A DNA stretch of 64,000 bases from Macrostomum lignano (GCA_002269645.1 NIVC01000273.1:124001-188000); one strand, 5' to 3'. Shown: positions 9,771 to 42,841, numbered from the stretch's first letter. The notes: a model not told the origin generated them from the letters alone. Translations and numbers: made by a program.

Positions 9771-9909
9771 GTAGTAGAATGCATGAGGGGGCTTCTGGGA
9801 CAAAATTTTTAACGTCCTCCATAATCCCATTAAATCCATCAATATTATCCCCGACAGAATCAGAAAAAAAGGGGGGTCGCACTCGCTCACAAAACGTCTT
9901 CCATAATCC

Positions 9910-13100: not shown

Positions 13101-14106
13101 ACTGGCGCAGAATTCGTCTGGTCTTGCGGAGCGGAGGACGGCCGAGCAGCTCCCAGTGGTTGCTGGGGATGAGACTTATCTCTGCACCTGTGTCAAGCTG
13201 CATCCGGAGCGGCCGACCGTTGATGCGAACTGACTGGAAAAGGCCCCTGTCACCAGCCCTTGGACTCACAATGAATATGTTGGATGCTCCACTGTGGGTG
13301 TCGCCTGCAGCCTTCTGTGGCTCCTGTTCGCTGACCTGGGGTTCAAGTGACTCTTGATGGACAGTCTTTGATCGGCAGACAGAGGCGAAGTGATTGCGCC
13401 TGTTGCAGCTCGCACACTTCTTTCCGTAGGCAGGGCAGCTTCCTTTTGCGTGACTACCCCCGCAGTATGAGCACTTTGATGAAGCATTGGACTTGGACTG
13501 ACGTCTGGCGAAGGCTATCTCCAGTTGCTGCGGTTGTGTCGGGGCCACACTGTACTCTTGTATTTTCTCGAGTTGTTCTAAGCTTTGCAGAATGTCGAGA
13601 AGCAGAACTTCAGCACCTTGAGTCCTTTCGAGCACCCTGCGTCTGTGCTCTGCCGTAGCCAGACCGTCAATCAAGCGCATCGTTATCATATCATCTTCGA
13701 TTGGTTGCTTCTTTCCTAGCTCCGCGAAGTCACAGCTAGCCGCCGCGGCACGAAGTCGTCGATAGTACGCAGCCGCCTTCTCGCCCTGCTCTTGCTTGAT
13801 ACCCAGAAACTTTATGCGTTCGGCTATGACAAGGCGCCGCTTGGGACGGATGGTGGCAGTTATCAGTTCTTTTATAGTTTCGAACTTCATGTCCTCCAGC
13901 AGTTTCGGTGCTGCGGCTAGCGAGAGAGTTCTGATTGCTGAAAGGCCAGCTGTGGCGAGAAAGAGATCTGTGACGTCCCGAGCTGTCTCCAAGTCACTCA
14001 GTTTCTTTATCCGAGCATTGGCAGCAAAGCTCAGAATCCAGGCTTCCGCTTGGTCCGGGTCGTCAAGATTCAGCTGTGTCTCCTTGCATCCTGCTTGCGA
14101 CGCCAT
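10192..14106 (-). CDS. gag-pol: Gag-Pol polyprotein, 1304 aa
   Basis: CCHC knuckles (CSYCGGSH...C, CASCNRRNHFASVC), protease LDTGA, RT YQDD, RNase H TDAS/EREALA/TDH, integrase HH-CC plus D-D-E (LVDA, SDNA, AERM). Domain order PR-RT-RH-IN. Confidence 0.97.
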   Translation of the reverse strand: MASQAGCKETQLNLDDPDQAEAWILSFAANARIKKLSDLETARDVTDLFLATAGLSAIRTLSLAAAPKLLEDMKFETIKELITATIRPKRRLVIAERIKFLGIKQEQGEKAAAYYRRLRAAAASCDFAELGKKQPIEDDMITMRLIDGLATAEHRRRVLERTQGAEVLLLDILQSLEQLEKIQEYSVAPTQPQQLEIAFARRQSKSNASSKCSYCGGSHAKGSCPAYGKKCASCNRRNHFASVCRSKTVHQESLEPQVSEQEPQKAAGDTHSGASNIFIVSPRAGDRGLFQSVRINGRPLRMQLDTGAEISLIPSNHWELLGRPPLRKTRRILRQFDGSIITCLGEFTATWETESQFHTVDLVVTAAQKSHGLLGMDNLNFDQNPSITTLSASIAAVEQLPHLRGFDAKIKLVDGARPFYCAARAVPIHLQDSVNAELKRMEAEGIIEPVPPGGSEWASPIVCVMKPNGRVRICADFKAGVNHQICGDTYPIPAVETIFADIAGMSYFATIDLSDAYLQIILEESSRPVTTVATPLGLFRYTRLVPGLKSASAIFQKAMESTLSEVKGKVVYQDDILLGGRSRAELDAKVRLTIGTLTSAGMTVNLDKSNLGAAEVSFLGYKISAAGVSPDPRLVERIQAISAPKDRRQLESFLGLCNFFGRFVKNYSSIVEPLNQLRGRNTEFIWGADQDRAFHHLKELLASRPIIRPYDRKKETTLTTDASERAIAAVLTQDGHPVMYFSRRLSEAESRYSNVEREALAIVWAMERARQFLLGTCFSLRTDHRPLEFLFGRRRQLPKVANARLLRWAIRLMGFDFRIEYVKGSEIPHADALSRLNFADNESTERLPEASEEDARIVHWTGGAVLPWRELADETLKERLLVDIAARIEKNCWSNCSPAERPFKAVRHALAIDEGVICYGDRTVIPTSLRRRVLELVHNDSHQGANSTRTQLRNSAWWPGYCGDVEMFVRACPTCARLHPRGQSTVHRGPQENGPWCRVHMDHAHVQGVGLILILVDAMSGWPEAVRVPDRSAATVKRVLQDVFSRNGVPEVLVSDNAAEFHDAKLTGWLERIGCCPIKTPPLHPQSNGIAERMVQSIKKASLGWDRRETYESFLARLLLNYRCIPHAGRPHSPSELMGRQLRNPITMRTPIGSGIWYVPAAGLPPEKAEFLLQKGSNTALIQRGSGRLTLAHQDQIRPLINTEASQSSTEEAQNKAAAPLLRHAGDAAAGLIGGSAERHSADGDDDARTEQAAETAPDVAPDLAPNAELDTTPEPHPTHPGGTGRYPSRSNRGVPPLRFGGGR
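14089..14105 (-). promoter_or_regulatory. Primer-binding site TGGCGTCGCAAGCAGGA overlapping the gag-pol start codon
   Basis: Begins 1 nt after the 5' LTR. The complement ends in CCA and resembles a tRNA-Ser 3' end (tRNA identity is inference). Confidence 0.75.
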
Positions 14107-14391
14107 TGACGCGACGCAGACAAGGCTTGTTTAATTTGAACAATAATGCAGCGAACTGATATATTTGCTGAGTAAATATTACAACGAAGAAAAGCTAGAT
14201 TCAGTTATTTAAATACGTTTTGGTATAAAACGATATTTGAGTTATTGATAAAAGTTAGATTTGAAAGTACGCTATGTGCGCATTGATGTACGCATGAGTG
14301 GGATGGACGCTAGGCATGGTAAGCAGGGCACAAAGTGAGTCAGTTTAATATCTAGCCAGTCAATAGTCAGTGACAACCCCCCAACACGTCA
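14107..14391 (-). repeat. 5' LTR (285 bp)
   Basis: Near-identical to 9910-10194. Confidence 0.97.
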
Positions 14392-15893: not shown

Positions 15894-17181
15894 TTAAACT
15901 TTACTGGATGAATTGTTGATCATGTTAAGCTTCACCTTCCTCTCAAATGCATAGATAATGTACAGGTCCACGGGTGTTGCGACAGTCCTTTCAATGTTAG
16001 TCACGATATTCACAGGGCTGTTATCAGTAGGCATTTGTCTGGCAGACACATCAGCGCCAAACATCGGATATAGAGTTCCATATTGAAGAGCAGTGATAGC
16101 AATTCCATTGTTCTCTTTCACAGCCAAGTCGACCAACTCGCTGTAAAATTTGCTAATCTTGTTCTGACTGAAATCTCCATTTTGTGGCAGTGCAGGGTAA
16201 AGATTATCACTGATTTCATGCTGAATGGACCGCACGTCTCCATGCATGTAGCGTATAATGCTATTTGGGTTTCTCATGTTAATAATAATATACCTTGGAT
16301 TGCTGCATGATCCCTCTTTAATGCAGATGTTTGTTCTAGTTTCGTTTCGCTCATCTCGACACATGTAGGCCGTTGTATGCAACATCAATGTCCTTCTCTA
16401 TTGCCTTGAGATAATCCGCTTTTAGTGCGGTCTTTGGCTCAATGACTTCCAAATACAGCTCGATTCCGGTTAGCTTCACAGCCATCCCAGTGTGGTCCGC
16501 CCCAGTCCACAACACTCTACTGCGATCATCTCTAGTCATCCTAAAGGTGTAGCTAAAGTTACTAGTCAGTCGATTAAATGTATTACAGAATCCACTCATG
16601 AATCTCAATGGTACAAATACATCAACAGACCGATACAGCGGGTTCTTAGCAGCATCATCAGCACCTTGCAATGCATAGTTGTATCTCTTCTTCCTATTTT
16701 TATAGCCACTGTCATTGATATCTCCTTCTTTTTCATCTGCAATAAAACCCGCACCACTTCCCAACTGAATAAAATCAGGATTCTCGATCAAACAATGAGC
16801 GTCATAGACAATTCCAAAGTTGGCGATTCGCTCCAACTCAGTGCTCCCATTCGATACACTAAACTCCTTGAACATGTACGCCCAAAAGTTACTGATCAGA
16901 GCCACATCCGCATCATGCTTGTCAACGTTAGCGCGAGCCGCATCCGCACCACCCTTTGTCTTGAATTGAAATTTCATATGGAAGCCGCTCTTAAGACTGT
17001 GCACACTAACCAAAGACGAACATCCATTGTATGTAAATGTCTGTGTTTGACCAGGACCAAGATTAGTTTCATTCTGATTTTCCTGACTGGGAACTCTTAC
17101 CTGAGTCGCTTTGATTGTGCTATCATCACTCAAAATAGGCTTGTTAATTTTGTAGAAAACTGGTGTCAGTGGGTCGTTCAT
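15894..17181 (-). pseudogene. Maverick major capsid protein (M4 family) broken by a 1-bp insertion near 16372
   Basis: VFVPLRFMSGFC, FRMTR, IELYL, YPMFGADVS. The copy at 63.3-64 kb reads GCATACACGG in frame where this copy has GCATACAACGG. Confidence 0.85.
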
Positions 17182-17308
17182 TTTTTAACTAAAAATAAAA
17201 TAAAATAAGAAATGAAGCGAAAAAGTACACAGCAGATATCTGAATTTGAGAAGCTAGCACAACATTTCCTGCAACTCATGTGAGCTCGGTGGCTTAAAAC
17301 GTCACAAA

Positions 17309-18163
17309 ATGAAAAGCAGCTGCAATGTCAGTCGCTGGATGCTTTGCCACGAGTGCCAGACGCGTGAGCTCTTTAATGTGCGCCAGCAAGTTCGAGCTCA
17401 TAAAAACCACATCATTATTAACTGGAGCTCACCTGGAGATTTAAAAAAAGCCCGCTTTGCTGCCTTGGAGGCTGCCCAGCGTCAAGAGCAGCTCAACATT
17501 ATCGAGCGCAGTCGAGCACCGGTCAGCGCACTCAGCCAGACAATTCAGGGCGTCTTTCAGCAGCCTGATGAAGATTTTCAGCACGCTACCGACGCAAACT
17601 TTGATCTGCTTGCCGCTGCACTTGCCGCTGTGGAGCAGAAATCAGATTTTTTTGGTTCAACCGCTGCGCCAGCTGCTGATGCCGGCCTCCCAGCTGACGG
17701 TGCCGGCCTTCCAACTACTGATGCCGGCCTCCCAGCTGACGGTGCCGGCCTTCCAACTACTGATGCCGGCCTCCCAGCTGACGGTGCCGGCCTTCCAACT
17801 ACTGATTCCGGCCACCCGGCTGACGATTCCACTGGTTTTGCAGCTCCTTCGGAGTTGGATACTGCCTTCTTCGAGGATATCGAGTTGGAGCCTGTTGAGC
17901 TGGCAAATGAAGAAGCTGAGCAGCAACAGATGCCACCCTACAGGCCTGTTCCAGTCGCAGGAAAAAATATGGAGCAAGCCAGAATGATGGCAGAAGCAAG
18001 CCTATCCGATCTCCTGCGAGAATTCGAACCTCCTACTCCACCGGCCGCACCAGAAATCCAAGCCGGTGACATCCCAGTCGTAGAAGCCATGCCACCGATG
18101 CCACCGTCAGTCTGCATTCAGCTGGTACTACCGAGCAGAGTCGAGGGGCGAGTATTTTATTGA
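17309..18163 (+). CDS. Hypothetical low-complexity acidic/Pro-rich protein with three 42-bp repeats (DAGLPADGAGLPTT)
   Basis: 284-aa open frame upstream of the M2 polB; no family recognised. Confidence 0.45.
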   Translation: MKSSCNVSRWMLCHECQTRELFNVRQQVRAHKNHIIINWSSPGDLKKARFAALEAAQRQEQLNIIERSRAPVSALSQTIQGVFQQPDEDFQHATDANFDLLAAALAAVEQKSDFFGSTAAPAADAGLPADGAGLPTTDAGLPADGAGLPTTDAGLPADGAGLPTTDSGHPADDSTGFAAPSELDTAFFEDIELEPVELANEEAEQQQMPPYRPVPVAGKNMEQARMMAEASLSDLLREFEPPTPPAAPEIQAGDIPVVEAMPPMPPSVCIQLVLPSRVEGRVFY

Positions 18164-18898: not shown

Positions 18899-21800
18899 AT
18901 GGCCACCTCATCGAGTCAAGAGGACGAGCTGGTGGACCCAGCTGTCAGCCACGAATTTGGACCGAGTGGTAAGTTTTTTCATTCAATTGCTGGTTTTATG
19001 AACTCATGCATTTCTGTTTGTTGCATTCCTGTCTCTTAGCAACGGAATTATTTATATTTTTCTCGCCTACACAACAATTCCCTAATGGTTCCCAACAGGA
19101 TTAAGCCGGAGAACTCACAATAATGAGACATTTTTATTCCTCATTAGATGAATTGACAAAAATGCGAAAGCAGAACTCCATCTATTTCTTCAATAATAAC
19201 TCTTCAAATTATTTTTTTACACTTATACGTAGCTCGTATTGATTAATAAAAAATATTAAATCTAGAAATAAGGTAGTAGGATAAATAGTATACTCGTAAG
19301 TGTAAAAAAGGGCAATAAAATATTCGTCTTCCATAACTCCCAGAGACATTTCTCATCATTTCCACTTTCCATTAATATTTTAATACTATCTTCCCTTCTT
19401 CAATTGTAGGACCTTCATTCACCCTGGCGTTAAAAACCAGCGCTCACGAAGATGTTCTTCAAGTTCATCGATTTACACCTGTAGCTGCCACTGAAACATT
19501 CGAGTTTCTCGATTTCTGCAAAATTGCAGTACAGCAGTGTCTTGAAATTCGCTTCGACTCTTCGGATAATTGCTCTGTTAAAGCTCAGATCAAACTGAAT
19601 TTGCACATGGTCAGAGTGCAGGCGTCAGAAGCTGTCAAGGGGGAGGATAAATGGATGAGCACACAACTCGGATTGGTGGTAGATATACAGGAGTTTGATG
19701 ATTGGTGGAGACAGCAGTTTACAGAGCTGGAGCGCAAAGTCGATGTCTACAACACCAACGGTAGTGGCTGGATAATTGAAAAAATTAATTTTTTTGAACT
19801 TTACTCAGCTCTCATCGAACGAGTTTCCTACTACACGGGGCATGCTGCGGAATTTATTCTACCGACTCCACTTCTTCGGAAGAAGGCGGTTATTTGTCCT
19901 CCAAGCAATGGTGTAAATTGCTTCCTTTACGCATGCCTTGCTTTTCTACACAAGGAAGACAACAAAATCAGCGCAACGCGAGTCTTCCTACACTGACTGG
20001 CTGGATGAACTTAACATGAGTGGAATTGACTTGCCAATCAATGTCACCGACCTTTCCATTGTTGAGAGACTGAACCCGAGACTTTGCTTCACGGTTTTCA
20101 TCTGGGAGAAAGATAGCGCTCAAGTCATCCGCTTGCCTACTGCAGCTACAATTAAAGATCGAGAAGTTGTTCTACTCTTATTTATTCCACCATCAGAAGA
20201 CGAGGCCTCGGGTCATTGGTGTGCTGTTTCAAGCATCAACAGGCTTCTTAATAGCAAGGCAGCTCTGCATCGGCGGAAGTGGTGAGAGCGCTGCTTGCTG
20301 CCCTTTCATAGTGATGCAGCCTTCGAAGAGCACAGCCGAGCTCCTTGTCAACCTGGAGTGATCAACGTCAAGGAAGAGTTGCCGGATGAAAGGAATAATA
20401 TTCTCCGATTCTCATCATGGGAAAAAACAATTAGTCCGCCATTTGTTGTTTACGCCGACTTCGAAGCATTGAATGCTCCATGCCAAGAAGATTCGATTGC
20501 TGGTATAGCAACGAAGAAGTTAACTGAGCACATTGCTGTTGCTGCTGGCTACATCGTGCTGCACAGAGAAGGGATGACTGGTCTAGCGCCCAGAGGAGCG
20601 GATGATAAAGTGAGCACTTTTGTCAGCGACGATCCTAATAAGTGCATTTCCGATTTCCTGCAATCGCTGGAGAAGCTCGCTCGTGAAGTTTACGGCTGGA
20701 ACACGGAGTTCAGTCGACAAGCAGCGATAAGAACAGAGATGGCAGGGCGACAGTTCAGAGAAGCCACAGCTTGCTGCTATTGTGGAAGCGAATTCACGGA
20801 GGGTCAAATAAACATTGGGATCACGACCACCTCAGCGGAGAATTTCGGGGAGCTGCGTGTGCTGATTGTAATATGAAGGCCAGACTAAAGAGGTCTTTCC
20901 CTCCCGTCGTGTTCCACAATTTCAGGGGGTACGATCTCCATCTCATGATGTCATCCGCTTTGGGTCTGATGGAGGGTTGGAAAATCTCCGTCATCCCTCT
21001 GAATCCAGAGCAGTTTCTGTCGATGAAAATCGAATTTAAAATCGGCGAGTATGAGAGTGAGGGCAAGATCAAGCCCCTAAATTTTACTATTCAGTTCATT
21101 GATTCGAATCAATTTCTTAATGCCAGCCTCTCACAGGTCATCAAAAATTTACCAGAGGCTGAATGTCGTATCACTAGTCGCCTACGCAGCAGATTCCCAC
21201 TGCTATCATCCGAAGTGCTTTTCAGTAAGGGAGTTTTCCCGTATGACCATCTTAAAAATTCAGACGTGCTGAAGGATGCCGTGCTTCCCAGCCAAGAAAG
21301 CTTCTACAATGCTCTGACTAAGAGCCACTGCACCAACTCTGACTATGAGCATGCTCAACGCGCCTGGCGTGAATTTCAGGTTTCAAATCTAAAAGAGTAC
21401 ATGCTGTGCTACCTCGAGCTCGACATCAGGCAGTTGGCTGATATTTTTGAAAATTTTCGCAAGATCAGCATGCAAGAGGATGGCTTTGATCCAGTCCATT
21501 TTATTTCGACACCAGGCCTATCATTCGCTTCGGCATTGAAATCCATCAAGTCAGGGATTGAACTGATAACAGATGCGCAGATGTATTCGCTGTTTGAGCG
21601 CGGCATTCGCGGCGGCATGTCGTTTGTTAACATCCACAAAGTGCAGGCTACCTCAGCAGCGGGCGCCAGCACTGGTGTTGACAGCAATGAGGATGCTGAT
21701 GGTGGCACTCCTACTATTCATGCCGGCCTCACCGAGCTTCTTGCTGTGGATGCAAACAACCTGTATGGACAGGCGCTCACTATGAACTTACCAGTCGGAG

Positions 21801-22980
21801 GATTCCGTTGGCTGGACGATGATGAGCTGCTTTTGTGGACTGAAGATCGCATTCGAGGACTCAAGCTAACCGATCCACTCGCCTACCTCTTTGATGTTGA
21901 CCTTGAGTACCCCCCAGAGATTCACGAAACCACCGAAGACCTGCCATTTGCACCCGAAAAGGCTGCCCCGAATTTCAGGGAATTTCCTGCATACATGCAG
22001 CAGCTGTGGGAAAAGGTCGGTACGGAGAACTCCACCTATCATCCGACAGAGAAGCTGATGCTCACTTGTCACGATAAGCCTTCCTATGTGGTTTATTTTG
22101 CTATTTTGGCGTTCTACCTTAACCATGGAATGCGGGTTAGACGCATCAATCGCATGATTGAGTTTCACCGAGAGCCTCTCTTTGCTGCCTACGTCGAGAA
22201 AAATAGCCAGAAGCGGGCTGCAGCGAAAACCAACTTCGAAAAGGATTTCTACAAGTTAAAGAATAATGCGCTGTTCGGCAAAACTATGGAGAATGTGCGA
22301 AAGCGGCGTGATATTCGAGTCTGCACCAACGTGGAAAAGGTAAAGGTACTGCTTGCCAAGCCGACAATTACCAATTTTATCATAATTACTGATTCACTAA
22401 GCGTTTTGGAACTGCAAAAGACAAAATTAAAGCTCGATCGGCCTATTTTTATCGGGCAATGCGTCCTAGACTTTTCGAGAATGATTATGTACGAGCTGTT
22501 TTACGACAAACTGAAGCCCTGGATAGAGAACGATGGAGGTGTCATCAAGCTATGCGGTGGTGATACCGATTCTTTCTTTCTCTCAATCAGCAACATGAGC
22601 GTTCAGTCTAAAGTTCTACCGCTGTTGAAGTCGAAGCAGCTGCTCGACACTTCAAACTATCCTCAAGAGCACGCGCTATTCTCTAATGATTTAAAAGCGC
22701 GACTTGGCTGCATTAAGGATGAAGCAGCCGGTGCTCGCTTTGAGGAGTGGCTGCTCCTAAGGCCGAAGAGCCGGCTCACAATGACTACCTAAGGGTGTTC
22801 AATGAGCTCTGCAGCCATTCTGTCGTTGTTCATCGTATTGCCAGCATCCATCACCGACTGTACACTTTGCAGCAGCGGAAGTGTGCCTTAAGCATTTGGG
22901 AAGACAAGCGCGCTTGGCTGAGCCCTAACTATAGTCTCCCATTTGGTCACATTTGGCTGCTACAGCAGCAGCAGCAGCAG
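18899..22980 (+). pseudogene. polB: Maverick M2 protein-primed PolB: putative intron 18969-19409, one nonsense codon, ~3 frameshifts and a deletion; last codons displaced to 33962-34008
   Basis: GSGW (terminal-protein region), VVYADFE, CCYC...HWDHDHLSGEFRGAACADCN, FHNFRGYD, IDSNQF, KGVFPYD, DANNLYG, KLKNNALFGKT, GDTDS, EDKR...SLPFGH across ORFs 19601, 19938, 20295, 20771 and 22747. Confidence 0.92.
18969..19409 (+). other. Putative phase-1 spliceosomal intron in polB (441 bp)
   Basis: G|GTAAGT donor after a 23-codon ATG exon; pyrimidine tract plus TGTAG|G acceptor; the joined frame is open into PolB sequence; AT-rich interior. Confidence 0.6.
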
Positions 22981-23023
22981 CCCGCTACGTCAACGGACGT
23001 AGGCGGCCACAACAGCACCGTGG

Positions 23024-23094
23024 CCGCGGTCATGGGCATCGCCTCTACCCGGCGACCCGGATGGTCGGACAGCTACGACCGTGCCAAGATGCCC
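23024..23094 (+). ncRNA. Candidate HDV-like self-cleaving ribozyme
   Basis: P2 GGGCATC/GATGCCC; P3 GCC/GGC around a 7-nt loop; P4 ATGGTCG/CGACCGT; J4/2 GCCAA; P1 CCG(C)GGTC/GACCCGG; all in canonical double-pseudoknot order. Confidence 0.7.
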
Positions 23095-23233
23095 AACCCT
23101 AGGCAACCGCCTCCCCCGGTACGCGACTACGTCACGACCGCGGTGCGAGGCGACGATCACTTCCCGGTGTCCAGACATGTCATCATCGTCATCAGCCTCC
23201 TTTTCTGGCTGCAGTTTGCTCGCCCGGCTCGCA

Positions 23234-23260
23234 GGCGACATTGAACTAAACCCCGGGCCC
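23234..23260 (+). other. 2A-like ribosomal skipping motif GDIELNPGP
   Basis: Exact D(V/I)ExNPGP motif preceded by LLARLA. Confidence 0.85.
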
Positions 23261-25583
23261 GACTGCGACTGCTGCGGTCGCCCCATCAGAAGAGGCTCGA
23301 ATTTCCTCTCCTGCCAGTCCGGTCAGTGCCCCACCCGCTGCCACAAGCAACCATCTTGCAGCAGCATCCGCCGATACCAACAGAACCAACGCTGGCTCTG
23401 CCAACAACACGGCGGACCAGAGCGCACCCCCCGCAACCCGCCAACCGCGGAGGCAGCTACCCCCGGCAACTGCAGTGCCTGCTCGGGCCCAATCCGCTCC
23501 GGCACCACTCCGCTACGGTGCGCAACCGCCGGCTGCACGTCAACCTGCCACCGTACAACCAAATGCAGCAGCATCCCGCGCTTCAAGGGCTGCCCTCGCT
23601 GGCGCTGCCCCGTCCACACCCCACCTGCGGTGAGGTCCCTGGCCGGCCGCCCGATCGCGGATAGGCGCCCCGCGGATGCCGACCACCCCCGCCCGCCGAC
23701 TCAAGACTCCGGCTGCTGCAGCGGGTGCTACTCTCTCTTCCGCTCTAACCACCACCCCATCGCCTGCCGTCAGTGTAATGCTAAGTTCCACAAGAAATGC
23801 ACCCGTCTCACCAGGCTCGCGGCCGACCTGGCTGCCACCCAGGGTCACTGGACCTGCCCGGCCTGCACCTCAACATAGGCGGCACACGAAACGGCAGCCA
23901 CTAACCAGACCACGACTCAGGCCCGGACTTCCACCCAGCGCGCCTGCCTCCGCACCACGACCCGCCAGGAATCCCTGCTGATTCTTCAGTGGAATGCGGA
24001 CGGCATCTCAACCCGGGTCGCCGAGATGGCAAACTGCATCAACTCTCTCAAACCAGACCTGATTCTGATCCAGGAGTCCAAACTGCGCCCGCAGGACCCC
24101 ACCCCCTGCCTCCATGGTTACGCCGCGGTTCGGGTGGACCGCAAGCGGCCGGACGGCGGAGGTGGGCTGCTCACATTCATCCGGGACTGTCTCGCATTCG
24201 AACGCAAGCCGGTGACGACCTGCGAGCCAATCGAAGCCTGCCGCGTGCGTATCTTCCTGAGCTCCAAGAAATCCCTGGACGTGGACAACGTGTACGTCCC
24301 GCCTGTCCGTGGCGGCGAAGAACACGGCGAGGTACTCTGGTCGACCCTCCCAACGGACGCCGACCTGCTCGCCGGCGACTTCAACGCCCACTCGGCCATC
24401 TGGGACCAGATCCAACCGGCCGATGGTCGTGGCGACACCCTGCTGGACTGGGCCACCGAACATGGCCTGACGGTCGTGAACGACGGCTCACCAACCAGAA
24501 TTAACCGCGGTACAGGCGGCGAGAGCACGCCAGACGTATCGCTTTGCCGCAACGCTTGGCATCACCGCACCTCTTGGAGTACCCTCGACGACCTCGGCTC
24601 CGACCACCTCCCAATCGCCATCAACCTCCGCTGCACCACCGAAAATCTCCATCGTCAGACCAGGACTTTCTGGAGAAGCACCGGGGTGGACTGGACGGCG
24701 TTTGCCCAGGACGTCGACTCCCAAGTCGCCACCTTCAAAAGCATTGGCGTCTCATTCAAACAACGAGTCAGCCGCCTCACGGAGGCCATCATAGCATCGG
24801 CACACCGCCACGTGGGGAAAAAGTCCTCCAAACGTCCAGCCCGGCCCTGGCTCTCCCAGGAGGCTCGCGAGGCCATCCGCAAGCGCAATCGCCTCCGCAG
24901 AGACGTCAGTAACCGCCGCGCCGAATGGCTCCAAGCCTGTGCGGACGCCGCTACGCTCTCCCGCGAGAGCAAGGAGAAGAGCTGGCGGGAATTCCTGTGC
25001 GACACCGACCTATGCCAAGATGCCACCAAGGCCTGGCGCCTCGTCCGCAGCCTCAGCGGTACCCCGGGTGACAACGCCACTAAGGAGGCCCTGTCCGTCA
25101 GAGACAAAACCTACTGCGACGACGCGAGTAAGGCTGAGATCTTCATCAAGCACTACGCGGCGGTCAACCGTCTCCACTTCAACAAAGCCGACCGCGCCGT
25201 CAACCGCTCCGCTAAGTCTGCCGTACGCGCCTGCGACACCAACCAGGAGGCGGAAGAGTGCGCCCCATTCTTGGAACACGAGCTCGACGCGGCCATCAAG
25301 CAACAACGAGCCACTGGCGCCCCCGGCCCGGACGATGTCTCGCCGCGCTTCCTCAAGGCCTTGGGCCCCATCGCCAGAGCCGAGCTCCTCGCACTGTTCA
25401 ACCAGTTCCTCTCCAGGGGCATCGTGTCACAGCAGTGGAGAAACGCCACCATCATTCCGCTGCTCAAGAAGGGCAAGCCACCCGGCGACTTGGCTTCCTT
25501 CCGCCCGGTCAGCCTCACCTCCTGCGTTGTCAAGCTGCTGGAAAGCATGATGACCGCGCGCCTCACCTTCTTGGCTGAGTCCC

Positions 25584-25794
25584 CTTAACTTGACTTAGCT
25601 GCAGGGCTGTCCCGGAGGGGACACAGCGGGAAGGCGCGGGCGCCCATTCCGCTAGTCCCTGAACGGCCGACGCGTCGCTATGGACGGAGGGTTGGCGCCG
25701 CCCAGGGAGGTCCCCCAGTGTCGCCAGCAGCTATAGTGCTCTCTGGAAAGGAGAGTTCAGCCCTGCGGGTGGCCCGAAGGTAGCGCATGAGCTG
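25584..25794 (-). mobile_element. 211-bp antisense retroposon (5'-truncated LINE end or SINE) with 12-bp TSD
   Basis: TGGCTGAGTCCC at 25572-25583 and 25795-25806. Minus strand ends CTAAG-TCAAG-TTAAG. Excision restores FLAESRGWLSQQQAGFR. Confidence 0.85.
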
Positions 25795-27919
25795 TGGCTG
25801 AGTCCCGCGGCTGGCTCTCACAACAGCAGGCCGGCTTCCGCCGACTCCGCAGCTGCGAGGACCAAATTCTGTCAGCTGTCCAGAGCATCAGCGACGGCTT
25901 CCAGAACTCGCCCATGCTGCGCTCCATCATGGCGTTTCTCGATTTTAGTAAAGCCTATGACAAAGTCTGGATTGAGCGCCTACTCCTCACTCTCATCGAG
26001 AAAGGTGTACCAGGGATCTACGTCCGGTGGGTCCGCGCCTTTCTCAGCAACCGCCAAGCCCGCGTGTGCGTCAACGGCACCAACGGACGCTACCGCCGGC
26101 TTCGCCAAGGGCTCCCGCAGGGCTCAGTCATCACCCCGCTGCTTTTCATTCTGTTTCTGGACCCTGTGGTGTCGGCCATCCCGGCGCAATTTGACGCCCT
26201 GATGTACGCTGACGACATCGCCGTCCGCAGCCAGAGCAACGACGTCGCAACAGCTACACTCGTCCTCCAAGACGCGGTCGACTGCGTCGCGAACTGGAGC
26301 CGAGCCAACCACATGGTGCTGAACCCGACCAAAAGCGAATGCGCCCTGTTCACTACCGACCCGCATCAGGCCGCCCTCCAGCCCAGCATCTGCCTCAACG
26401 ACACTACCATCCCGTTCTGCAGCAGCCCTCGTTTCTTGGGCGTCTATCTCGACCGCACGCTTTCCTTTAGCAAACAGGTATCCGAAGTTTGCAGAACAGT
26501 CGGCAACCGCTGCCGTCTCCTAGCGTGCCTCGCTGCCAGGTCGTGGGGCTGGTCTAAAGACAGTCTCCTAACTACCTTCAAAGCAATGCAACTCAGCATC
26601 CTGCACTACGCGTCACCAGCATGGCAACCCTGGCTGGCAGACACTGCCATGTCTCATCTCCAACGCGCGCAGAACCAGGCACTCCGTATTGTCACAGGTC
26701 AGCTTCGCACAACCCCGGCTGAGGCACTCCACCTCGAGGCTGGAGTGTGCACCGTCGCTACCATGCGCGACCAACTCTGCCTCGCGGCTTACGAAAAAGC
26801 GCTGCGCCTCCCGGAGGACCACCCGCGCCACCGCGCGGCCGCGGCCCAGGTTCCGCACCGCACGGCCAGAAACAGCTGGCGCCACCGCGCCCAGCAACTT
26901 CTGGCAAGAATTCCGGGAAACCTGGGCCGCCGCGAAGCCCTCCCACCGCTCCCCCGCTGCCCTTGGATCCACCTGGCGGCGGGCTGGACCGTGACGCGCT
27001 TGCTGTCGACCGTCGCCGTCAGACCCAGGCAGGCTGCTCACCCGACGACGCAACAAGACAGCGCTGACTTAGCCAGGGACCAGGCGATATCATCCATCCG
27101 CACGGCGAACGCTGACCTGGTTCTTTACACGGACGGCTCCGCCGAAGGCGGCTGCTCCGAGGGGGGCGCAGCATGCGTGGTCACCCGCGGCGACCCTGCC
27201 ACCCCGCAGGTCGTCGACACCATCGCTGCCCGCGGCGCCTCGCCGACCTGCAGCTTTGACGAGGAGCGCCGCGCCCTCGGACTGTCCATGGCCTGGCTCA
27301 ACGACCATCAAGTCACCGGCCGGGTGTTGATCTGCTCCGACAGTCGCGCACTGCTCGACGCCCTCATGAGCATCGTGCCGAGATGCTCGCTCCCGGACTT
27401 GAACTGCCGGGTTGCCTCCCTCACTCTCCAGTGGATCCCAGCGCACTGCGGCATCCCTGGTAATGAGATGGCGGACGCAGCCGCCAAGAATGCCGCATCC
27501 ATCGCTGGCGCGTCAGCGAGCACCTCGTACAGCAGCGCGGTGGCAGCGGTCAGGCGCGAGATCGTCGACCCGCCCCTGACCCACGCCCGCACGATTTCCG
27601 TGTACCGCGCGCTCAACCGGCAACGCGACCGCGCCGAACTTCAGAATCGTCAGGATGCCGTCCTCCTGGCGAGGCTCCGCGCGGGCCACTGCAGCCTTCT
27701 CCGCGCGTACAGTCGCATCGTCAACCCGACGGCGGACCCCATTTGCCCACGCCGCGAGGAGGGCCCGGAAGACCTCGAGCACTGGCTCGGTTGCCCGGCC
27801 CTCCGGAGGCTCCGCCTCGAGCTGTTCGACGAGGACACCCTGGACCCCGGGATTCTGACCGTCGCCCCCGCGAGGTCGGTGGCGCTTGCGAGGCGAAGCC
27901 TCTGACTCCCTCGGCGCCT

Positions 27920-28010
27920 TTGCCCCAACAACAACAACAACAACAGCAGCAGCAGCAGCAGCAGCGACGACGACGACGACAACAACAACAACAACAACAG
28001 CAACAGCAGG
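27920..28010. repeat. Compound (CAA)(CAG)(GAC) microsatellite between non-LTR elements 1 and 2
   Basis: Directly visible. Confidence 0.95.
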
Positions 28011-28045
28011 CTCGAGGAAACGACCCCGAGGGGACTGAAATCTGT

Positions 28046-28120
28046 CCCGGCGCGATCCGTCGGACCTCCACGAGGTGCGCCCTGGGCCCTACCACTTCCA
28101 TGGTGGGGCACGAACACGAC
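28046..28120 (+). ncRNA. Candidate HDV-like ribozyme (element 2)
   Basis: P3 ACC/GGT with loop TCCACGA; P1 GGCGC/GCGCC; GG for P1.1; 9-bp P4 GCCCTACCA/TGGTGGGGC; J4/2 ACGAA; P2 GTCGG/C(A)CGAC. The first two P1 positions do not pair canonically. Confidence 0.55.
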
Positions 28121-28216
28121 CGAATCCACATTGCTGTTGACTGGGCTGTCAAGGAGAAAGAAACAACGGGCGAGCTGGACCCGTGGGACTCGACGTGGAA
28201 TAGACTCCCACGCAGC

Positions 28217-28243
28217 GGGGACGTCGAGGCAAACCCGGGGCCG
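28217..28243 (+). other. 2A-like ribosomal skipping motif GDVEANPGP
   Basis: Exact D(V/I)ExNPGP motif. Confidence 0.85.
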
Positions 28244-31200
28244 TGGGCCGAGTGCGGCATCTGCAGCAGAGGCCTTAGGAAAAGCTGGCTCGTTTGTGCT
28301 GGCTGCCAGAGCCAGGTGCACCAAAAATGCGCTGGGATCACCAGAAGCGCAGCGGAGAAATGTAAGCAGGACAGTGACCAGTGGTGGTGCGAAGCATGCG
28401 CGCCAAAAGCTAGGTGCGTAGTATGCCAGCGATGCCGCGTTAAAATCAAGATGAACACCAAGGCGGTCGAGTGCTCGGACTGCAAGCGTGCTTTCCACAA
28501 AGCGTGCACAAAGCTAACACGACGACAGCTGAAGCTGCTAGGCGACAGGAGCGTCTGGACGTGCGGCGACTGCACGGCAGAGTGGCCGGCGGAGGACAAT
28601 GTAGTCAACACCAGGCTGAGGCCGGATGACAGGGGAAAATGCATGAAGTGCTGTAGGAAGTTTCAACAGCGCCAGATTCCGGAGCAGTGCTGCAAGTGCA
28701 AGCGGTGGGCACCTGCTAAGTGTACCGGCAAGAAGCGAGGGCGGCAGTACCACACTCAATGGACGTGTGAGGGGTGCCAGGCGAGTGAGCTGGAACCGGA
28801 AGTTGCCCGCTCCGATGAGACCATGGAGTCGATGACAACAGTGCAAGAGGAGACCGTGATAAGTATCCCACCGGACGACACCAACATACGAGACGTGCCA
28901 AGGTCACCGAACGGGTCAAGCCCAAATGACACCGAAGCGGAGGACAACGCTGCTGATAGCTGCCAGTGCTGTGTCTGCGCCAGCACGGTCGGCAACGAAT
29001 GGAGCTTGCGCTGTGCAATGACCAGCCAGTGGTGCCTCCTGAAGTGCGCCGGACTAGACATCAAAACCGTCAAGAGGCAGCCAAAAAGCTCCTGGACACA
29101 TTGGTGCTGCCCGGTGCACGCCAGGAGTGGTGATAGTAGCCAAACGCAGGGGGCCGGGAAGCACGTGCAGCTGCGGAGCGGACGGTGTGGCTACAAGGAA
29201 TGCAACCGCCGCCTAAAACCGGAAGCTTTCCTGCAGTGCAACAGCTGCCCGACAAAGGTACACGTGAGCTGCGGCGGCACAAGTAGCCGCGCGCTCATCG
29301 ACAAATGGCGCCGTGAAAAGTCGTGGGCATGCCGCCTCTGCCAAGCGGCCGGGAGAGCGCACACAGCTGAGCCCACAAGCAGAACAGAAAGGGCAGGCGA
29401 CGAACCAAAAGAGATGACCGGAGGGCGTCACATCTGCGTCTGCCAATGGAACTGTGATGGCCTGGCACCAAAGATCCCGGAGCTGCTGGCGTTCGTGACA
29501 GCTAACTATATTGATGTAGTAGCGCTGCAAGAGACTAAGACCAGAGCCGAGGATAAGCGGCCAAAGACGCCTGGATACCGGCTTGTACGGCAAGACAGGT
29601 AGCGAGCCCTGCCTAGGGGAGGAGGAGTAGCCTTCCTTATCAAGGAGGCACTACCCTTCCGGGTCGTCCGGCGCAGTGGCGAGGCGGAAGGCGTTGAGGG
29701 CGGCATGGAGGAGCTTGCCATTGAAGTTTTCTGGACCGACAGTGAACCTGTGCGGCTGTACAATTTCTACGCCCCCCAAAGGCCCCGGGCACGGATACGG
29801 CTATGGCTCAACTACAGAGTGGCCCGGACGACTGGGAACTCTGGCTCGGCGATGCTAATGCGCACAGTAACAGCTGGGACAGCGACGCTCACCGGGACGC
29901 CCGGGGAGAGATGCTGGAGGCTTGGATCAGTGAACGTGACGCCATCTTATTAAACGACGGCTCCCCGACCAGGCGTGGTAGAGGCACGGAGAGACCTAGC
30001 GCGCCCGACATCACGCTGTGCAGCTCTGCCATCTACCGACATTGGAGACCGGAGTGGAAAGTGGAGCGGAGGCTGGGCTCGGACCACGCCCCCATCCTGA
30101 TCAGGGGAGGGTCGCAAGAAGACAGCTCAGAGGAGGCGCGCCTTACCTGGCACTGGAAAAAGGCGGACTGGGAGGCGTACCGGAGACAGATCGAAGCAGC
30201 ACTGGCGGATAGCGAGCCGGAAAAGACGGTGGCAAAGGAGGAGGAGAGATTGCGCAAGATCGTGCTAGCGGCCGCGTACAACTGCATCGGACTGATTAAA
30301 CTGAATAGAGCGGAGAAGTTCAGCCTGAGTGCCGAGGTCGAGGAGGCGCTGGCGAAACGCGATGCCCGGTTATGGGGACTCGAGCAGGCGGCGGACGACA
30401 CAGCGGCCGCTGGCGGAAGCGGAAGTAATGCCGACGAGGACCCGATTACTAAGATCAGGGATGACCTTAGAGAGAAATGGTGGAGTCGGGTCACGCAGAC
30501 AAGAAGCGCCGAAGATATGTGGAAGCTGGTGAGCGGTTGTAAAGAGAAACCGCCGAGAGTCCCTGCTGAGGTCATAGCCCAGGGAGAGAGGAGGCATGTG
30601 AAGCCGGCGGACAAAGCCACGGCTTTCGCCAAGGCCTACGCCAGCATCAGCGACGTTAAGGTCCCGCGGGCTAACAGGCATGTCAAACGACAGCTGAACA
30701 AAGGACTGCGGCAGACAGGAAAGACCGGAGACCCAGTGATCACGGAAGTCGAGGTTAAACGAGCGCTGGAAGAGATGGACGGGAGCAAAGCCCCAGGGCC
30801 GGACAAAGTGCACCCGCAGCTGCTCAAGCACATACCGCCATCCGGTGTGGCCGCCTTTACTAACCTGTTCCAAAGATCATGGCAAAGGTCTGAAGTCCCC
30901 CAAAACTGGCGATCAGGCGAAATCATCCCGCTGCTGAAGGACGGATTGGACCCGGAGATCACATCATCGTACCGCCCCATCTGCCTGACAGCCACCATCG
31001 GGAAATGGCTTGAGAGGGTGGCCAGCAACCGGCTATACCACGCGCTGGAGAGCAGAGGCCTACTTGCCGAAGAGCAGGCGGGCTTCAGGGCCGGCCGCAC
31101 CACAACAGACCAAGTGCTCGCGCTGTGCCAGGACATCGCAGACGGCTACCAACTAAAGCTTAAAACGATCGTGGCGCTGTTAGACTATGCGAAGGCCTAC

Positions 31201-33194
31201 GACACGGAGAGACGGGCTGCTAGAGAAGATGCGGCGTTTAGGTATAGACCCGATGCTAATCCGATGGGTCCAGGCATGGCTCTGCAACAGGCTAGCCTGG
31301 GTCCGCCTCGGCAACGATCGCGGATGTACGGTGGTCATGAAGCAGGGACTACCCCAGGGCAGTGTGCTGTCACCGGTTCTATTCCTGATTTACATTAACG
31401 ACGTGGTGGAACAGGTAAACCAGCCGGTCAAGATCAGGTTGTTCGCCGATGACCTGGCGCTATGGGATCAAGCGGAGACGGTGGAAAAGGCGGCGAGAAA
31501 AATGCAGTTAGCGGTGTCGGACGTGGCGGAGTGGATCAGGAAATGGCTACTCCGGCTAAACCCGCAAAAGTGCGAGGTGGGCCTGTTCAGCCTGAACAAC
31601 AAGGACCGAGTGGAAAATGTTGCGCTGACCATCGAGGGAAAGCGCCTCCGCACCACGGAGGTCATCAAATACCTCGGCGTCTCCATCGACCGACGACTGA
31701 CGTTCGCCGAGCACATCCGCCTCTGTGTCATCAAGGCGCGAAACCGGATCAGCCTGCTGAAGAGACTCTGCGCCATAGGCGCTGGTCTACCCTTGGAGCT
31801 ACCCAGAACGGCGTACGTGGCGCTGGTCCGACCTGTCATCGAGTACGCGGCGGCGGCGTGGAGCCCGTGGGTGTCGGAGACGCAGTGGGCCAAGGTAGAA
31901 CGATGCCAGAGGGCGGCAGCCAGAGTCGTAACCAGACTGCCTAGCTCGACACCGGTCGAAGCGCTGCTCGAAGAGGCTAGGCTCCAGGACTTGCGAAGCC
32001 GAGCCAGAGAAGCGGCTGTCAAACTGTACGATAGCTACCTCAGGCTCGCTGCAGAGGACAGTCGCAAACGCTTAGCCCGTGCGGAAGTCAGGCAACGCCA
32101 AAAGAGGACAAATTGGCGCCGGGAGGCCAGTAAAGGCTGGGCAGCTATCTTTGACACGGACCCGCCAGCAGAGGACCGCACGTGGACCACACCGTGGGAC
32201 GGCGGAGCGGCAAACCTGGTGTTCCCGCAACCCGGTAGGAGAGAAGTGTGGAAGGAGGACAACGAAAAGGTAGCGCGTGAGAGGCTGAGCGAATGCAAGT
32301 CGGACTTGATTGTGTTTACCGACGGGTCAGTCGACAAGGAAGGAAGAGGCGGGGCCGGCTTCAGCGTGTGGGCCGAAGGAGTTGAGATCGCAACAGGCAG
32401 CCACCCTGCAGGACCCGGCTGCTCATCGATGCAAGCGGAGCTTGCTGCGATCAAGGCGGCAGTCGAGTGGATTGACCAGCAGCAGACAGGGTGGAGCGCC
32501 ATCACCATAGCCTGCGACAGCTCAGCGGCACTCCAAGCGTTGGATACCCCGCCACGGCGCCGAAAGAGGCTGGCTAACGCGATCCGGACCGTGCTGGATA
32601 AGTGGACCGATAGGTCAGTGCGCTTCGTATGGGTGGCCGGACATGCAGACGTGGAAGGTAACGAACGAGCCGACGAGCTAGCGGCCAAGGGCCGCCCCCT
32701 GAACGGCTCGGATGGACCAGGATGGACGCCGGAAGCTGCAAAGCTGGAGATAAGGAACCGCATGCGGAGGCGAAGTGGATGGAAGCACGCCAGGTCGGAG
32801 GCGACTTATAGCGCCAGCGGACCTAACTGGCACATCGAGGCAAACTGGCCGGTGACGGAGAGGGCCGACTACGCTCGCTTCCGCGTAGGCCATAATACCA
32901 AGTTGGCGGCGTACGCCCACCGCATCGGCCTGGCTACCACAGCAAACTGTCAGCACTGCGAGCAAGGTGAACCGACGGTAGAGCACGTAACCATCGAGTG
33001 CCCGGCGTTGGATAGCGTCAGACGGCAACTCGGGATAACCAACCTGAGCACGCTCTGTAACGACCCGGAAGCCGGCCGCCGGCTGTGGAACGCATTTCAG
33101 CGACTGTAATGAAAGGTACTGCACCGAGGGGATAGCCAACAGCAACAGCAATGCGAAAAACAAACAAACAGCAACAGCAGCAACAGCAGCAACA

Positions 33195-33942
33195 TTCACG
33201 GATAACGCCAGAGAAGTCCGTAGAGCGGCGGCGGGTAAGTTCTGCAGTTCGCTGGTGGCGGAAGAAGTGGCGTTAGTGTTAGCGCTGGATTTTATCGAGG
33301 AAAAAAAAGCCCCGCAGTGCTCTTATCTGCACGGACAGCAAGTCCGCGCTACTTAAACTCAGAGGCGAAAAGACACCCCTGTCGGCCAGAATGTACAACA
33401 CCATCGGGAGGCTGCGCTGTGCCAGCCAGAGGACAGAGATCTGGCTACAGTGGATCCCGAGTCATATCGGTATCCAAGGAAACGAAGAGGCTGACCAGGA
33501 GGCAAAGGCGGCTGGAGGGATGTGCCAGGATCACACGGCCATGGACTGGAGTTGCGTCAAGAGGCAGATCCTCAAGAGAGGTGCCAGCTCGTCCTGTGAA
33601 GACAAGAGATTGGAGGCCGTGTTTGGAGAAAAGAGGGTGCTGTGCTCGGTAAACCGTAAAACGGAGGTGTTGATGGCTCAACTGCGTTGTGGGCACTGCA
33701 AGCATACCAGCTATTGGAGGCAGAAGGTGGGCCTGGACCCGGCCGGAAACTGCTCTTTTTGCGACGAAGAAGAATCGAAAGACCACTGGATGACGTGTAG
33801 TAGATGGGACTCTATCAGGATTCGGTGTGGAGTGGAAGGAATAAGATCGCTTCAAGACGAGCCCAAGGTTTTAAAATTCCTTCAGCTGGCCCACCCTCGG
33901 TGGCTCAGCTGAATGGTTTTCTCGCCGAAGACACACACACAG

Positions 33943-33974
<32 letters not shown>

Positions 33975-33975
33975 G
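33195..33975 (+). mobile_element. 5'-truncated third I-group non-LTR element (RNase H plus C-terminal Zn finger, CAG/CAA tail)
   Basis: GKFCSSLVAEEVAL, a frameshift in the A-run at ~33300, then ICTDSKSAL, WIPSHIGIQGNEEAD, QLRCGHC, CSFC...HWMTC. Confidence 0.85.
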
Positions 33976-34573
33976 CAGAAATCATCAAAACGGCGCCGAC
34001 TACTTTGAAATTGAATAATGAGTACAACAAGCTTGCTAAACAAAAACAATAATTTCTTTGCGATTTCAAAGTTTCTTTCTTTAACATTGAATAAAGGTTA
34101 ACCGCTAATCTAAATAGGATTTTTTCCAAATGCAATAAAAAGTTTGATCATCTGCTGAGGCTAGCAACAATTTTTTGCTTCACATTATTTACTTACAATT
34201 GCGCGATGATGATAATAAAACCAATGCTTCGTTAGTGGTGGTGGTGGTGTTTGCGGTGATGGCATGTGAGAGTTTTATTTTTTTCTAATTTTACCTGTAC
34301 TATGTGGTTGGTTTTTTCGAATCCTGATATTGCTTTATAAATTTTATTATATTCCCTCCGCTTTTGGACTATTTTTCTTTTCCTATTTTTGTAGTGGTTT
34401 ATCTGCTTGCTCGTATTTGCTTTTAGCTTGCTATTTGTTTATCTCTACAAGATGTTCACTAGTGGTTTTTCAATGCAATAAAAAATGAAGACAAAAAAGC
34501 TAGTGCATGAGAGAGAATTAGTTTGAATATTTTAATTAAACAAGCCGCGATTTATTCTTTCTTTTTATTTATT

Positions 34574-35140
34574 TCAGTTTGAAAGCAAGCAAGCTAATAG
34601 GGAACGGTCTGATTGTAGCATATGCTTAGACTTTGCTCCGCTGAGCACAAATGAGCCATTGTGAAAAAGCGTACACTTGCAGTATTGAAGCTGACAAGCT
34701 AAAGCAGTAAAACTTTCAGGTTCATATTTCGCATTCGGTAGCACTTCACAGAGGTTTCTTAGTGATAGAGCCTTGGGCAAGTCTATTTTTCCATAAGCAG
34801 TAATAGTCTTAATTCGGACACAAACGGATTGACGAGGCAGCAGTTGAGGCCGAACTCTGCGATGCAGCATAGCCACGAAGCGACGGGCAGCCTTGACTGA
34901 GGCCGAGTAGCTCCGGGCGCCACAGATACTCAGTTGTCCAGTCGGATAGAGCAATAGAGTCACTCTGGGACTCCGCATCCTCTTGATGAGCACTCGGGGC
35001 CAAACGGGACGATAGATGACATGAGCCATGCTGAGAGCCAGTTCCCGCAGAGGCAACTGGGCACCCCTGCCTCCAGCCAGTCTCAGATCCACGCCGCCAA
35101 CCAGATTGGTCACTCGCAGGGCTGTCGCAGGTGTACTCAT
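34574..35140 (-). CDS. TATA-binding-protein (TBP)-like protein, 188 aa, intronless
   Basis: Two TBP-type half-repeats: VTNLV...Y.P.W...MRSPRVTLLLYPTGQLSICGARS and IKTIT...YEPESF...TLFHNGSFVLSGAKS. Confidence 0.85.
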   Translation of the reverse strand: MSTPATALRVTNLVGGVDLRLAGGRGAQLPLRELALSMAHVIYRPVWPRVLIKRMRSPRVTLLLYPTGQLSICGARSYSASVKAARRFVAMLHRRVRPQLLPRQSVCVRIKTITAYGKIDLPKALSLRNLCEVLPNAKYEPESFTALACQLQYCKCTLFHNGSFVLSGAKSKHMLQSDRSLLACLLSN

Positions 35141-40565: not shown

Positions 40566-42841
40566 CCGTTCCGGTTGGATGGTAAGCAGCGCTTACCATA
40601 GACTATTCCTTTCAGCAGAATGGTTTGCTAAGTCTGTGGTCATTCCAGTCTGATAAAAAGACATGAATAAGGCCCAAAACTAAGTCTCCATAAACTAACA
40701 TAGAAAGTTTTACAGCTGAAGATTATGGCTGCACTCATGGAAGAATTTGAAAGTTTTTCCGATTCGGAATTAATGACGTCCGATGAAGAAGAAGACATCA
40801 TGTCAGAGGACGATTATGGTGAGTCGGACGGCCAGAGCACTGCCGAAGAGACGGAAGAGCTGTCTTGGCATTCTGTAGTTGCTGGGCATGACGTGCAAGC
40901 GAATGTGCACGAGTTTCTAGGGACACCTGGACTGAATCCAGGAATTTGCGTACCTGGTGATGTTGAGCAGGCAACGTCCTTTTTTCTCGGTCTTTTTTTG
41001 TCCAATAGTCTTTTCGAAGACCTGGCAAAATGGACTAATCGAAGAGCCTGGGCGGCGATCCACTCTGTCAATGTCAACGACCTGCCTCGGAGTTTTGCGC
41101 AATGGAGAGATTGCAGTGCGAATGAAGTAAAGAAAATGTTAGGAATGTGCCTTTACATGGGTTCCAATAAAAAGGCGGAAATGAACGAGTACTGGAGCAC
41201 AGACAGTTACTACAGTACGCCGTACTTTCAAGCACCTCAAGCTCTCTCTAGGGACCGCTTCAAGCAGCTACTTGGTCTGCTCCGTTTCTACGATTGCGCT
41301 GAGGATCCGATTGTCAACGATCCTCTCTTTAAGATCCGTCCGTTGCTGCAGGCTTTGAAAGAGGCTTGTATTAATGTGTACAGGCCCGAGGAGGATGTGA
41401 GCGTGGATGAGTCTTTGGTGCTGTACAAAGGTCGCCTGCGCTTTAAGCAATATATTCCAACGAAGCGGGCTAAGTACGGAATAAAGCTATATTGTGCATG
41501 TGAGGCCAAATCAGGCTACCTGTACAACTTCCGCGTTCACTCGACCCCAGAGGAGAACCGCCGGTTCGATGAACAGTTGCAGGGAGACAATCTGTCCTTC
41601 AGCGAGAAGATTGTTGTTGAGCTCTGCTACAACTTGTTGCACCAAGGCTACCGCATCTTTGTCGATAAATGGTTCGGTTCCTATCGGCTGTCAGAGTACC
41701 TGCTGACTCAAGGAACGCACCTGACTTGTACCGTCCGGGCCGACCGAGGTGTGCCGATTGAGCTCAGACAGCTGCACGTTCCACCTAACGACGTCGCCTT
41801 CATGCGCAAAGACGGGGTGCTGGCTGTCAAGATCGTTGAACGAAAGGAGAGTGGCCTGAAGACTCTGTATTTGCTGGACACGAAAGAGGCGGCTGAGAGG
41901 GTTCAAACCAGACGCGTGGTTCGTGGAGGAGCAGAAACAGTGGTGCAGAAGAGCAGGTCAGTTCTCACCTACAATCGGTGCATGGGTGGTGTTGACAGAA
42001 TGGACAGTCATCTACAGCCTCATCTGCCAGGGAGGAAAACTACAAAGTGGTTTTTGAAGCTCGGCTTGCATCTTTTTCTTCAAATGATTCGCAACGCTTG
42101 GATTGTGCACAGCCGGTGCGGTGGAGAGAAGACGTTCGCCAAGTTTCTTGAGGCCAGCATTCGGGAGCTGGTGGAGCGTACCGGAACGAGCAGGAAGCGC
42201 CCGGCCGCTGGCATCCAGGCCGCTCCAGGTGGCCCAGTCAGTCCGCATTTTCCAACGAAGATTGTGGCGCGGGACAGTCAGCCAAGACCAACAAAGCGCT
42301 GTCGTGTCTGCTACAGAGCTGGAAGCAGCAAGCGCACGATCTACTGCTGCCCTGAGTGTCCAGGGGAACCGGGGCTCTGCTTGGAAGCCTGCTTTCAGCA
42401 GTGGCATGCCTGATCTTCGACTGCGATTTGGACTAAGTCTGCCTTAATGAATCTATTTGAAGGCAACTGTTCACTCGAACTTAGTCAAAATATAATGCAA
42501 GTCAGTATATTTTAATTTAGTTTGTATGTTTACTGAGTTATTATGTTTATTTAAAGTTTAAAGTTGTCTAACACATATCACAATGTTCTTTCTTGCGTTT
42601 TGGAGTACTTTTGCATCTAAATGTACGATCTGTACGATCTGCTTACTTTTGTTTTACTTTGTTAAAATATTTTTCGTATGATTTTTTCTTCAGTCGAGTT
42701 GTTTCCAGACCGTGAATAATCTGTAGCAGATTTCAACCAACTGCGGTATAAAAGGCAAATGACAAATTTTTTATTTGGAAGGATAAAAGTAAAGCTAGTT
42801 CCTTTTTGAATAAATATTTGTCCATGACCCCTAATGGCTGA

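Follow-up and report, generated by a model that had tools for sequence, protein, structure and literature searches.

The window analysed here, a stretch of 64,000 nucleotides (64 kb) from Macrostomum lignano, carries three co-oriented non-LTR retrotransposons (E1, E2 and E3) that interrupt the CAG/CAA tract of a Polinton polB gene at 22963-34008 in this assembly (Table 1). Profile searches of the window matched polB (PF03175), integrase (PF00665), protease (PF00770, a weak match), capsid (PF21738) and ATPase (PF04665), and a TBP gene was found in the window as well. The same set of polB, protease, integrase, double-jelly-roll capsid and A32 ATPase is known from Polinton/Maverick elements and points to such an element as the host of the insertions. 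Two related Polinton-type elements seem to be present in the window, and their genes are listed here without being split between them. The polB frame runs through PFGHIWLL directly into (CAG)6.

Table 1. Features of the interrupted polB locus, with positions as counted in the window.
Feature	Position	Strand	Basis or remark
Protein-primed polB, Polinton/Maverick-type, in several frames	19376-22962	+	PF03175, E=5.5e-18
Polyglutamine tract piece 1, (CAG)6	22963-22980	+	Contains left copy of the E1 target-site duplication
E1, full-length Ingi-like LINE, interrupted by stops	22981-27943	+	Domains and copy comparison
Antisense insert of ~0.2 kb inside E1	25589-25793	-	12-bp duplication
E1 tail, (CAA)6	27926-27943	+	
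polB tract piece 2: CAG run, CGA codons, CAA run, mixed end	27944-28009	+	
E2 target-site duplication, left copy	27998-28009		12 bp
E2, full-length Ingi-like LINE, frameshifted, A-rich CAAA tail	28010-33168	+	
E2 target-site duplication, right copy	33169-33180		12 bp
Tract piece 3, between E2 and E3	33169-33194	+	
E3 target-site duplication, left copy	33183-33194		12 bp
E3, 5'-truncated LINE piece (RNase H half and C-terminus), (CA)n tail	33195-33938	+	
E3 target-site duplication, right copy	33939-33950		12 bp
Last tract piece	33939-33978	+	CAG/CAA run
polB C-terminal codons KSSKRRRLL and stop	33979-34008	+	Sister-copy comparison

The coordinates and the layout of the three co-oriented elements in the polB CAG tract hold as originally described, and E1, E2 and E3 are not nested in one another. 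Each element had also been thought to end in CAA/CAG repeats, which is correct for the CAA tail of E1 and incorrect for the tails of E2 and E3, since the CAG/CAA following these two is target DNA. Identity to the nearest copies amounts to 99.7% for E3 (a piece of 0.74 kb), 96-98% for E1 and 92-93% for E2. The duplication of E1 sits in pure CAG, where its size is unreadable, and measures 12-13 bp at a non-repetitive site (C38).

A search with the 3' end of polB returned 32 matches, 12 of which represented other copies of the gene at 98% identity. In 11 of these 12 sister copies an unbroken tract of 41-43 CAG/CAA codons with one CGA (R) continues in frame into KSSKRRRLL and the stop, so that the predicted empty allele (LLQn-KSSKRRRLL*) indeed exists and the C-terminus is the expected one in all 11 empty copies; more than 400 codons are open before the stop in 10 of them. 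The twelfth sister copy carries a 354-bp SINE within its CAA run. The long Q tract sets the host family apart from a 77%-identical polB family, which has a similar basic C-terminal motif and lacks the tract. The original tract was thus not (CAG)6, as had been supposed, given that the empty copies show about 40 codons instead of 6. The spacer that follows E1 displays the same order of CAG, CGA, CAA and mixed end as the empty sister copies, and the target-derived pieces, each counted once by hand, add up to ~38 codons, near the length of the empty tract. The spacers correspond to consecutive stretches of the old tract, for which reason their reading as element tails was rejected, and E1, E2 and E3 occupy three points of a tract that existed before them.

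The proposal that the train disables the viral polB is not supported by the comparison with sister copies, as the window copy already contains three frame-breaking deletions upstream of the train: near 19968 and 20800 (relative to 4 of 4 sister copies compared over the whole stretch) and near 22768 (relative to all 12 sister copies at the 3' end). The train itself removes only the last ~50 codons, and its role as the sole lesion of polB was rejected on the grounds of these deletions. Contigs from 6 public short-read runs contain the undeleted form of polB and E1 junctions that match two other sites; none of them spans the polB-E1 junction or the other junctions of the window, from which neither the presence nor the absence of the train follows.

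Domain analysis revealed profile matches of E1 and E2 to APE (PF14529/PF03372), RT (PF00078) and RNase H (PF00075), and of the E3 piece to PF00075. E1 comprises a putative HDV-like fold near its 5' end, a 2A, a PHD-like Cys-rich region, APE, RT, RNase H and a C-terminal Zn-knuckle-like motif, and E2 is composed of a 2A, PHD fingers, APE, RT and RNase H. The 2A-like motif DxExNPGP is located near the N-terminus in E1, E2 and most related families. In the related family F6, a single frame of 1581 codons spans everything between the 2A-like region and the C-terminus, with no separate ORF1; the window copies of E1 and E2 are broken yet collinear with this single-ORF layout. The second version of our own descriptor detected the HDV-like fold in 8 of the 11 families, E1 among them (0-2 hits in 500 shuffles), the first and stricter version having detected it in 2 of 11; E2 was matched by the earlier descriptor only (3 hits in 300 shuffles). 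Rfam identified no ribozyme in 22900-34100 or at the 5' end of one family.

According to excerpts of the published descriptions, Ingi/L1Tc elements combine a single long ORF with an N-terminal 2A, APE, RT, RNase H and a 5' HDV-like fold (PMC3708506, PMC5814959, PMC13708176, PMC5786205), the 2A being described as not exclusive to Ingi (PMC3708506). The elements reported here share with them the single ORF with 2A, APE, RT and RNase H, the short duplications, the tandem arrays and, putatively, the HDV-like 5' fold, whereas the possession of RNase H distinguishes them from Vingi, which lacks it. They differ from Ingi/L1Tc in carrying PHD fingers after the 2A, in having a target common to at least 11 divergent families, and in the nature of that target, a CAG/CAA microsatellite in place of the loose non-repeat consensus upstream of L1Tc with its poly(A) tail. 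In an RT tree of 31 unnamed rows (three of them under half filled), E1, E2 and E3 were placed on separate long branches. We read them as Ingi-like LINEs from three deep lineages, the Ingi-like character being assigned by anatomy. Protein homologues and cluster members of the elements came with no clade names attached.

Copies of these families were collected by DNA searches and by an RNase H protein query (148 matches; 146 of 2798 candidates scored), and the resulting copy lists are lower bounds. Altogether 100 stretches were examined and 11 families mapped, the 5' starts of most families being placed by eye, after the CAG/CAA (CAR) run. Of 33 rows with full-length 5' junctions, 28 agreed with (CAR)n at no fewer than 11 of 12 bases; once the window's two rows and one duplicate were removed, the count was 25 of 30 copies, from 11 families. 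The background was 90 matches among 105,652 window positions and 2,702 among 606,140 positions of distant flanks (0.09-0.45%), which places the enrichment at the exact junction at ~190-fold or greater. The prediction that these families target CAG/CAA was thereby confirmed for all three elements and their relatives. Of the five rows among the 33 that missed, two are 5' pieces in inverted orientation, one follows immediately on a GAA-tailed LINE, one (L158) is inserted cleanly in non-repeat DNA and one matches at 8 of 12 bases. The 54 rows of truncated copies, a few of which represent duplicates or internal breaks, include 20 with CAR in the final 12 nt and 32 with CAR no more than 40 nt away (background, 94 of 21,108); the other 22 rows had no CAR at this distance, some of these misses being inversions or internal breaks. 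The specificity for CAG/CAA is loose. The possibility that the 5' CAR run forms part of the elements was rejected, as the run varies by site, is missing at L158, precedes truncated copies and is present in empty alleles.

Full-length sites of E1, E1b and E2 are rich in CAG, and those of E3 and E4 mostly in CAA. Where the site is non-repetitive, clear duplications measure 11-14 bp and mostly start with ACA. Another gene, likely of a Polinton, resembles the window ORF at 17258-18163, has polB 2.8 kb off and contains a run of 5 Q codons that is empty in 23 of 25 copies; one further copy contains an E2-family insertion and another an E3-family insertion at the same site, each of which duplicates nearly the whole run. 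Hence ~15 bp are enough, and the duplication restores the target on both sides. The features by which microsatellite LINEs are recognised, i.e., the repeat on either side of independent copies, an intact empty site and target duplication, were all found.

Cross-family trains beyond this locus, as anticipated by the original prediction, were encountered both at other sites of this genome and among metagenome relatives. Four were picked from the match list as trains: C2768, in which four LINE families and the SINE of the twelfth sister polB copy are separated by short CAR spacers of 21-24 nt; C2036 (two members); C2653 (three members); and C109. C2653 and C109 are copies of one locus with two members in common and a different first one. 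Adjacent members were also observed at C1205, C1135 and C1567. In the 75 stretches not picked as trains, a reading by eye, with mostly ~0.5 kb visible downstream, identified an adjoining second member in 6. Multi-family trains are thus recurrent but a minority. The SINE has a tRNA-like head by eye alone, ARAGORN having found no tRNA in it (0 in 2 loci).

The 3' end is visible in 43 of 79 metagenome loci, with a CAR run lying no more than 150 nt away in 28 of the 43 (against 19 of 508 coding windows taken as a control), a count that is uninformative near CAA-tailed relatives because tail and target are inseparable there. Most of 12 relatives with CAC, CA or CTA tails also run into CAA/CAG, as judged by eye. 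Regions upstream of the 2A match CAR at 11 of 12 bases in 14 of 23 cases, compared with 21 of 477 in reverse-strand windows, an imperfect control. Trains were present in 4 of the 79 loci (L231, L239, L270 and L303).

We favour, with a probability of about three in four, the reading that three LINEs occupy three positions of the polB tract, where they likely arrived singly by means of an endonuclease that would nick (CAG/CAA)n. By analogy with established TPRT, the APE domain would nick the bottom strand, (YTG)n, and the freed DNA end would pair over 2-4 nt with CA/ACA at the 3' end of the RNA and prime reverse transcription. A second nick 11-14 nt away would cause 4-5 repeat units to be copied and leave a full target on each side. 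As every event would make two targets from one, the tract would never be exhausted and would accumulate insertions of any of the group's families, all in the same orientation, as a train. Q-coding tracts of Polintons and the (TTG)n tails of an RTE-like element would in this mechanism be merely commoner targets. The landing pad is renewed by target-site duplication, and the tails contribute little here.

The tails could in principle direct insertion by themselves, if an unspecific endonuclease succeeded wherever the 3' repeat of the RNA pairs with nicked DNA. Such templating is consistent with the fact that every tail ends in CA-containing units, with the ACA at the start of most duplications and with the co-occurrence of CAA tails and CAA targets in many families; we regard it as unlikely, because families with (CA)n, CAAA and (CAC)n tails enter CAG/CAA, which is beyond a pairing of 2-4 nt. 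In the (CA)n-tailed families E3, F6 and F7, CAR follows the element in 22 of 27 cases, and their 5' flanks contain CAR in 23 of 26 and (CA)n in 0 of 26, the latter being a weak control because the sampled flanks contain few (CA)n runs (5, compared with 166 CAR runs). Likewise, E1 has a CAA tail, yet 4 of 4 full-length E1 sites end in CAG, and the CAG/CAA preference is seen whether tails are CAA, CA or A-rich. The idea that each tail recreates the target for the next element, so that the train was built from a short CAG run, appears decidedly improbable at this locus, where the tract was long beforehand, the spacers are pieces of it, the CAA tail contributes just 18 nt, the tails of E2 and E3 differ from CAG/CAA and E1 follows CAG. 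No element lying inside a tail and still enclosed by an intact outer duplication was found among the copies examined. Growth of this kind would nevertheless suit the CAR spacers of the C2768 train and the 15 of 85 junction rows (~12 sites) that fall inside an antisense RTE-like element's (TTG)n tail. Tails of another clade, the RTE-like one, thus do serve as landing pads, and CAA tails can provide an extra target for families that accept CAA.

Random or break-driven insertions might also have simply persisted in repeats and in dead Polintons. CAG tracts are break-prone, and the host polB copy is broken anyway; nonetheless, this passive accumulation is very improbable in view of the junction enrichment given above, the single orientation, the normal duplications and the two families at the same site. 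A co-resident of the locus argues against it as well: the antisense insert in E1 is the 3' part of an element that occurs in many copies and carries a CAAGT-repeat tail, and this 0.2-kb element (1114 candidates, of which 40 were scored at 99-100%) was without CAG/CAA flanks in 8 of 8 loci and is not CAG-targeted. An assembly chimera joined at CAG/CAA runs would agree with the polB-E1 junction being unbridged by the contigs of the 6 runs, but is scarcely credible given the matched 12-bp duplications around E2 and E3, the correct order of the tract pieces and the junction of the 5'-truncated E3, which lies outside any repeat.

Several known systems come close to these elements. Excerpts of earlier reports list Waldo (ACAY), Mino (AC), Kibi (TC), Koshi (TTC) and Dong (TAA) as microsatellite-targeting LINEs (PMC3812793) and regard endonuclease specificity as the likely basis of insertion into simple repeats (PMC3812793; for HERO, PMC4640811). 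Most target-specific families are assigned in these excerpts to early-branched, Tx1 or R1 groups (PMC4640811, PMC8869645), and the way in which APE-type elements locate microsatellites is described as poorly understood (PMC3812793). The elements reported here likewise insert into simple repeats; in contrast to those families, their CAG/CAA target is not on the list, their tracts are often protein-coding and their trains mix families. For Ingi/L1Tc, the excerpts describe tandem arrays and hot spots that yield RHS pseudogenes with one or more retroelements (PMC5814959, PMC7563717). A CAG/CAA target for non-LTR elements was not found in the literature searched, Repbase being outside the reach of that search. 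The CAG/CAA preference of Ingi-like LINEs is therefore apparently undescribed so far, while microsatellite targeting and Ingi hot spots are already known. The odds appear evenly balanced on the wider proposal of an undescribed and widespread Ingi-like radiation, whose APE would recognise polyglutamine-coding CAG/CAA, with this preference kept across deep lineages and distant marine eukaryotes and the self-renewing landing pads shared by unrelated families.

These observations add the polyglutamine repeat CAG/CAA to the targets of non-LTR elements and locate a target preference in a lineage of the I group that does not belong to R1. Owing to this targeting, Q-rich Polinton genes gather insertions. 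If the wider proposal is true, the elements would encode a natural CAG-repeat-targeted integration enzyme, and a CAG-nicking enzyme might be of relevance to repeat-expansion loci and to targeted gene insertion. Near-identical young copies with open frames exist in these families, and together with the common target despite CAA, CA, CAAA and CAC tails they make the choice between endonuclease and tail pairing directly testable.

In the window, genes for polB, protease, integrase and ATPase are each present in two sets. Together with long inverted matches, this suggests a pair of related Polintons that are either nested or arranged in opposite directions. The TBP-like gene adjoining polB is apparently Polinton cargo, and further ORFs and other mobile elements and repeats of the window are listed in the table.

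Among the related LINE copies, inversion of the first 150-160 nt of the element was observed at the 5' junction of four truncated copies. In two of them (L192 and L203), the CAACAG end of the target is complementary to an internal CTGTTG at the start of the inversion, which would be as expected from twin priming. In L182, L184 and L200, full-length copies of E1, the first LINE of the polB tract, and of the related families E1b and E4d have their 5' ends 0-3 nt behind LINEs that carry RNase H and end in (GAA)n; this abutment could be explained by template jumping or by insertion into the left (upstream) target-site duplication.

A short element combining a ribozyme-like 5' part with a 3' end similar to the related family E4 is flanked by CAA runs and looks like a non-autonomous derivative of RIME/NARTc type. 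A SINE of 354 bp, whose tail is A-rich, also inserts in CAA runs and is probably mobilised by the CAG/CAA-targeting Ingi-like LINEs.

Coordinates of features in the window and in fetched genomic stretches (L-numbers)
Feature	Location	Strand	Remark
TBP-like gene	window 34574-35140	-	PF00352, E=1.3e-21
F5/8 type C (galactose-binding-like) ORF	window 49329-50726	+	among Polinton genes
Phospholipase A2-like ORFs (two)	window 42943-43716 and 53845-54336		among Polinton genes
Long inverted matches	window 16060-16733 and 63328-64000; 8939-9775 and 58957-59222		83-98%
Gypsy pol	window 10192-14130	-	open, 1312 codons
piggyBac-like transposase	window 40704-42413	+	PF13843
Satellite	window 4652-7621		36-bp unit, 84 copies
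Inverted 5' pieces	L192:4266-4407; L193:4613-4777; L203:5687-5850; L156:5680-5843		truncated copies
(GAA)n-tailed LINE	L182:700-950; L184; L200:1-1955		directly 5' of full-length copy
Short element	L210:6582-6720; L151:3870-4040
354-bp SINE	L003		once, tract of sister polB
354-bp SINE	L147/L148		once, within multi-family LINE train of contig C2768
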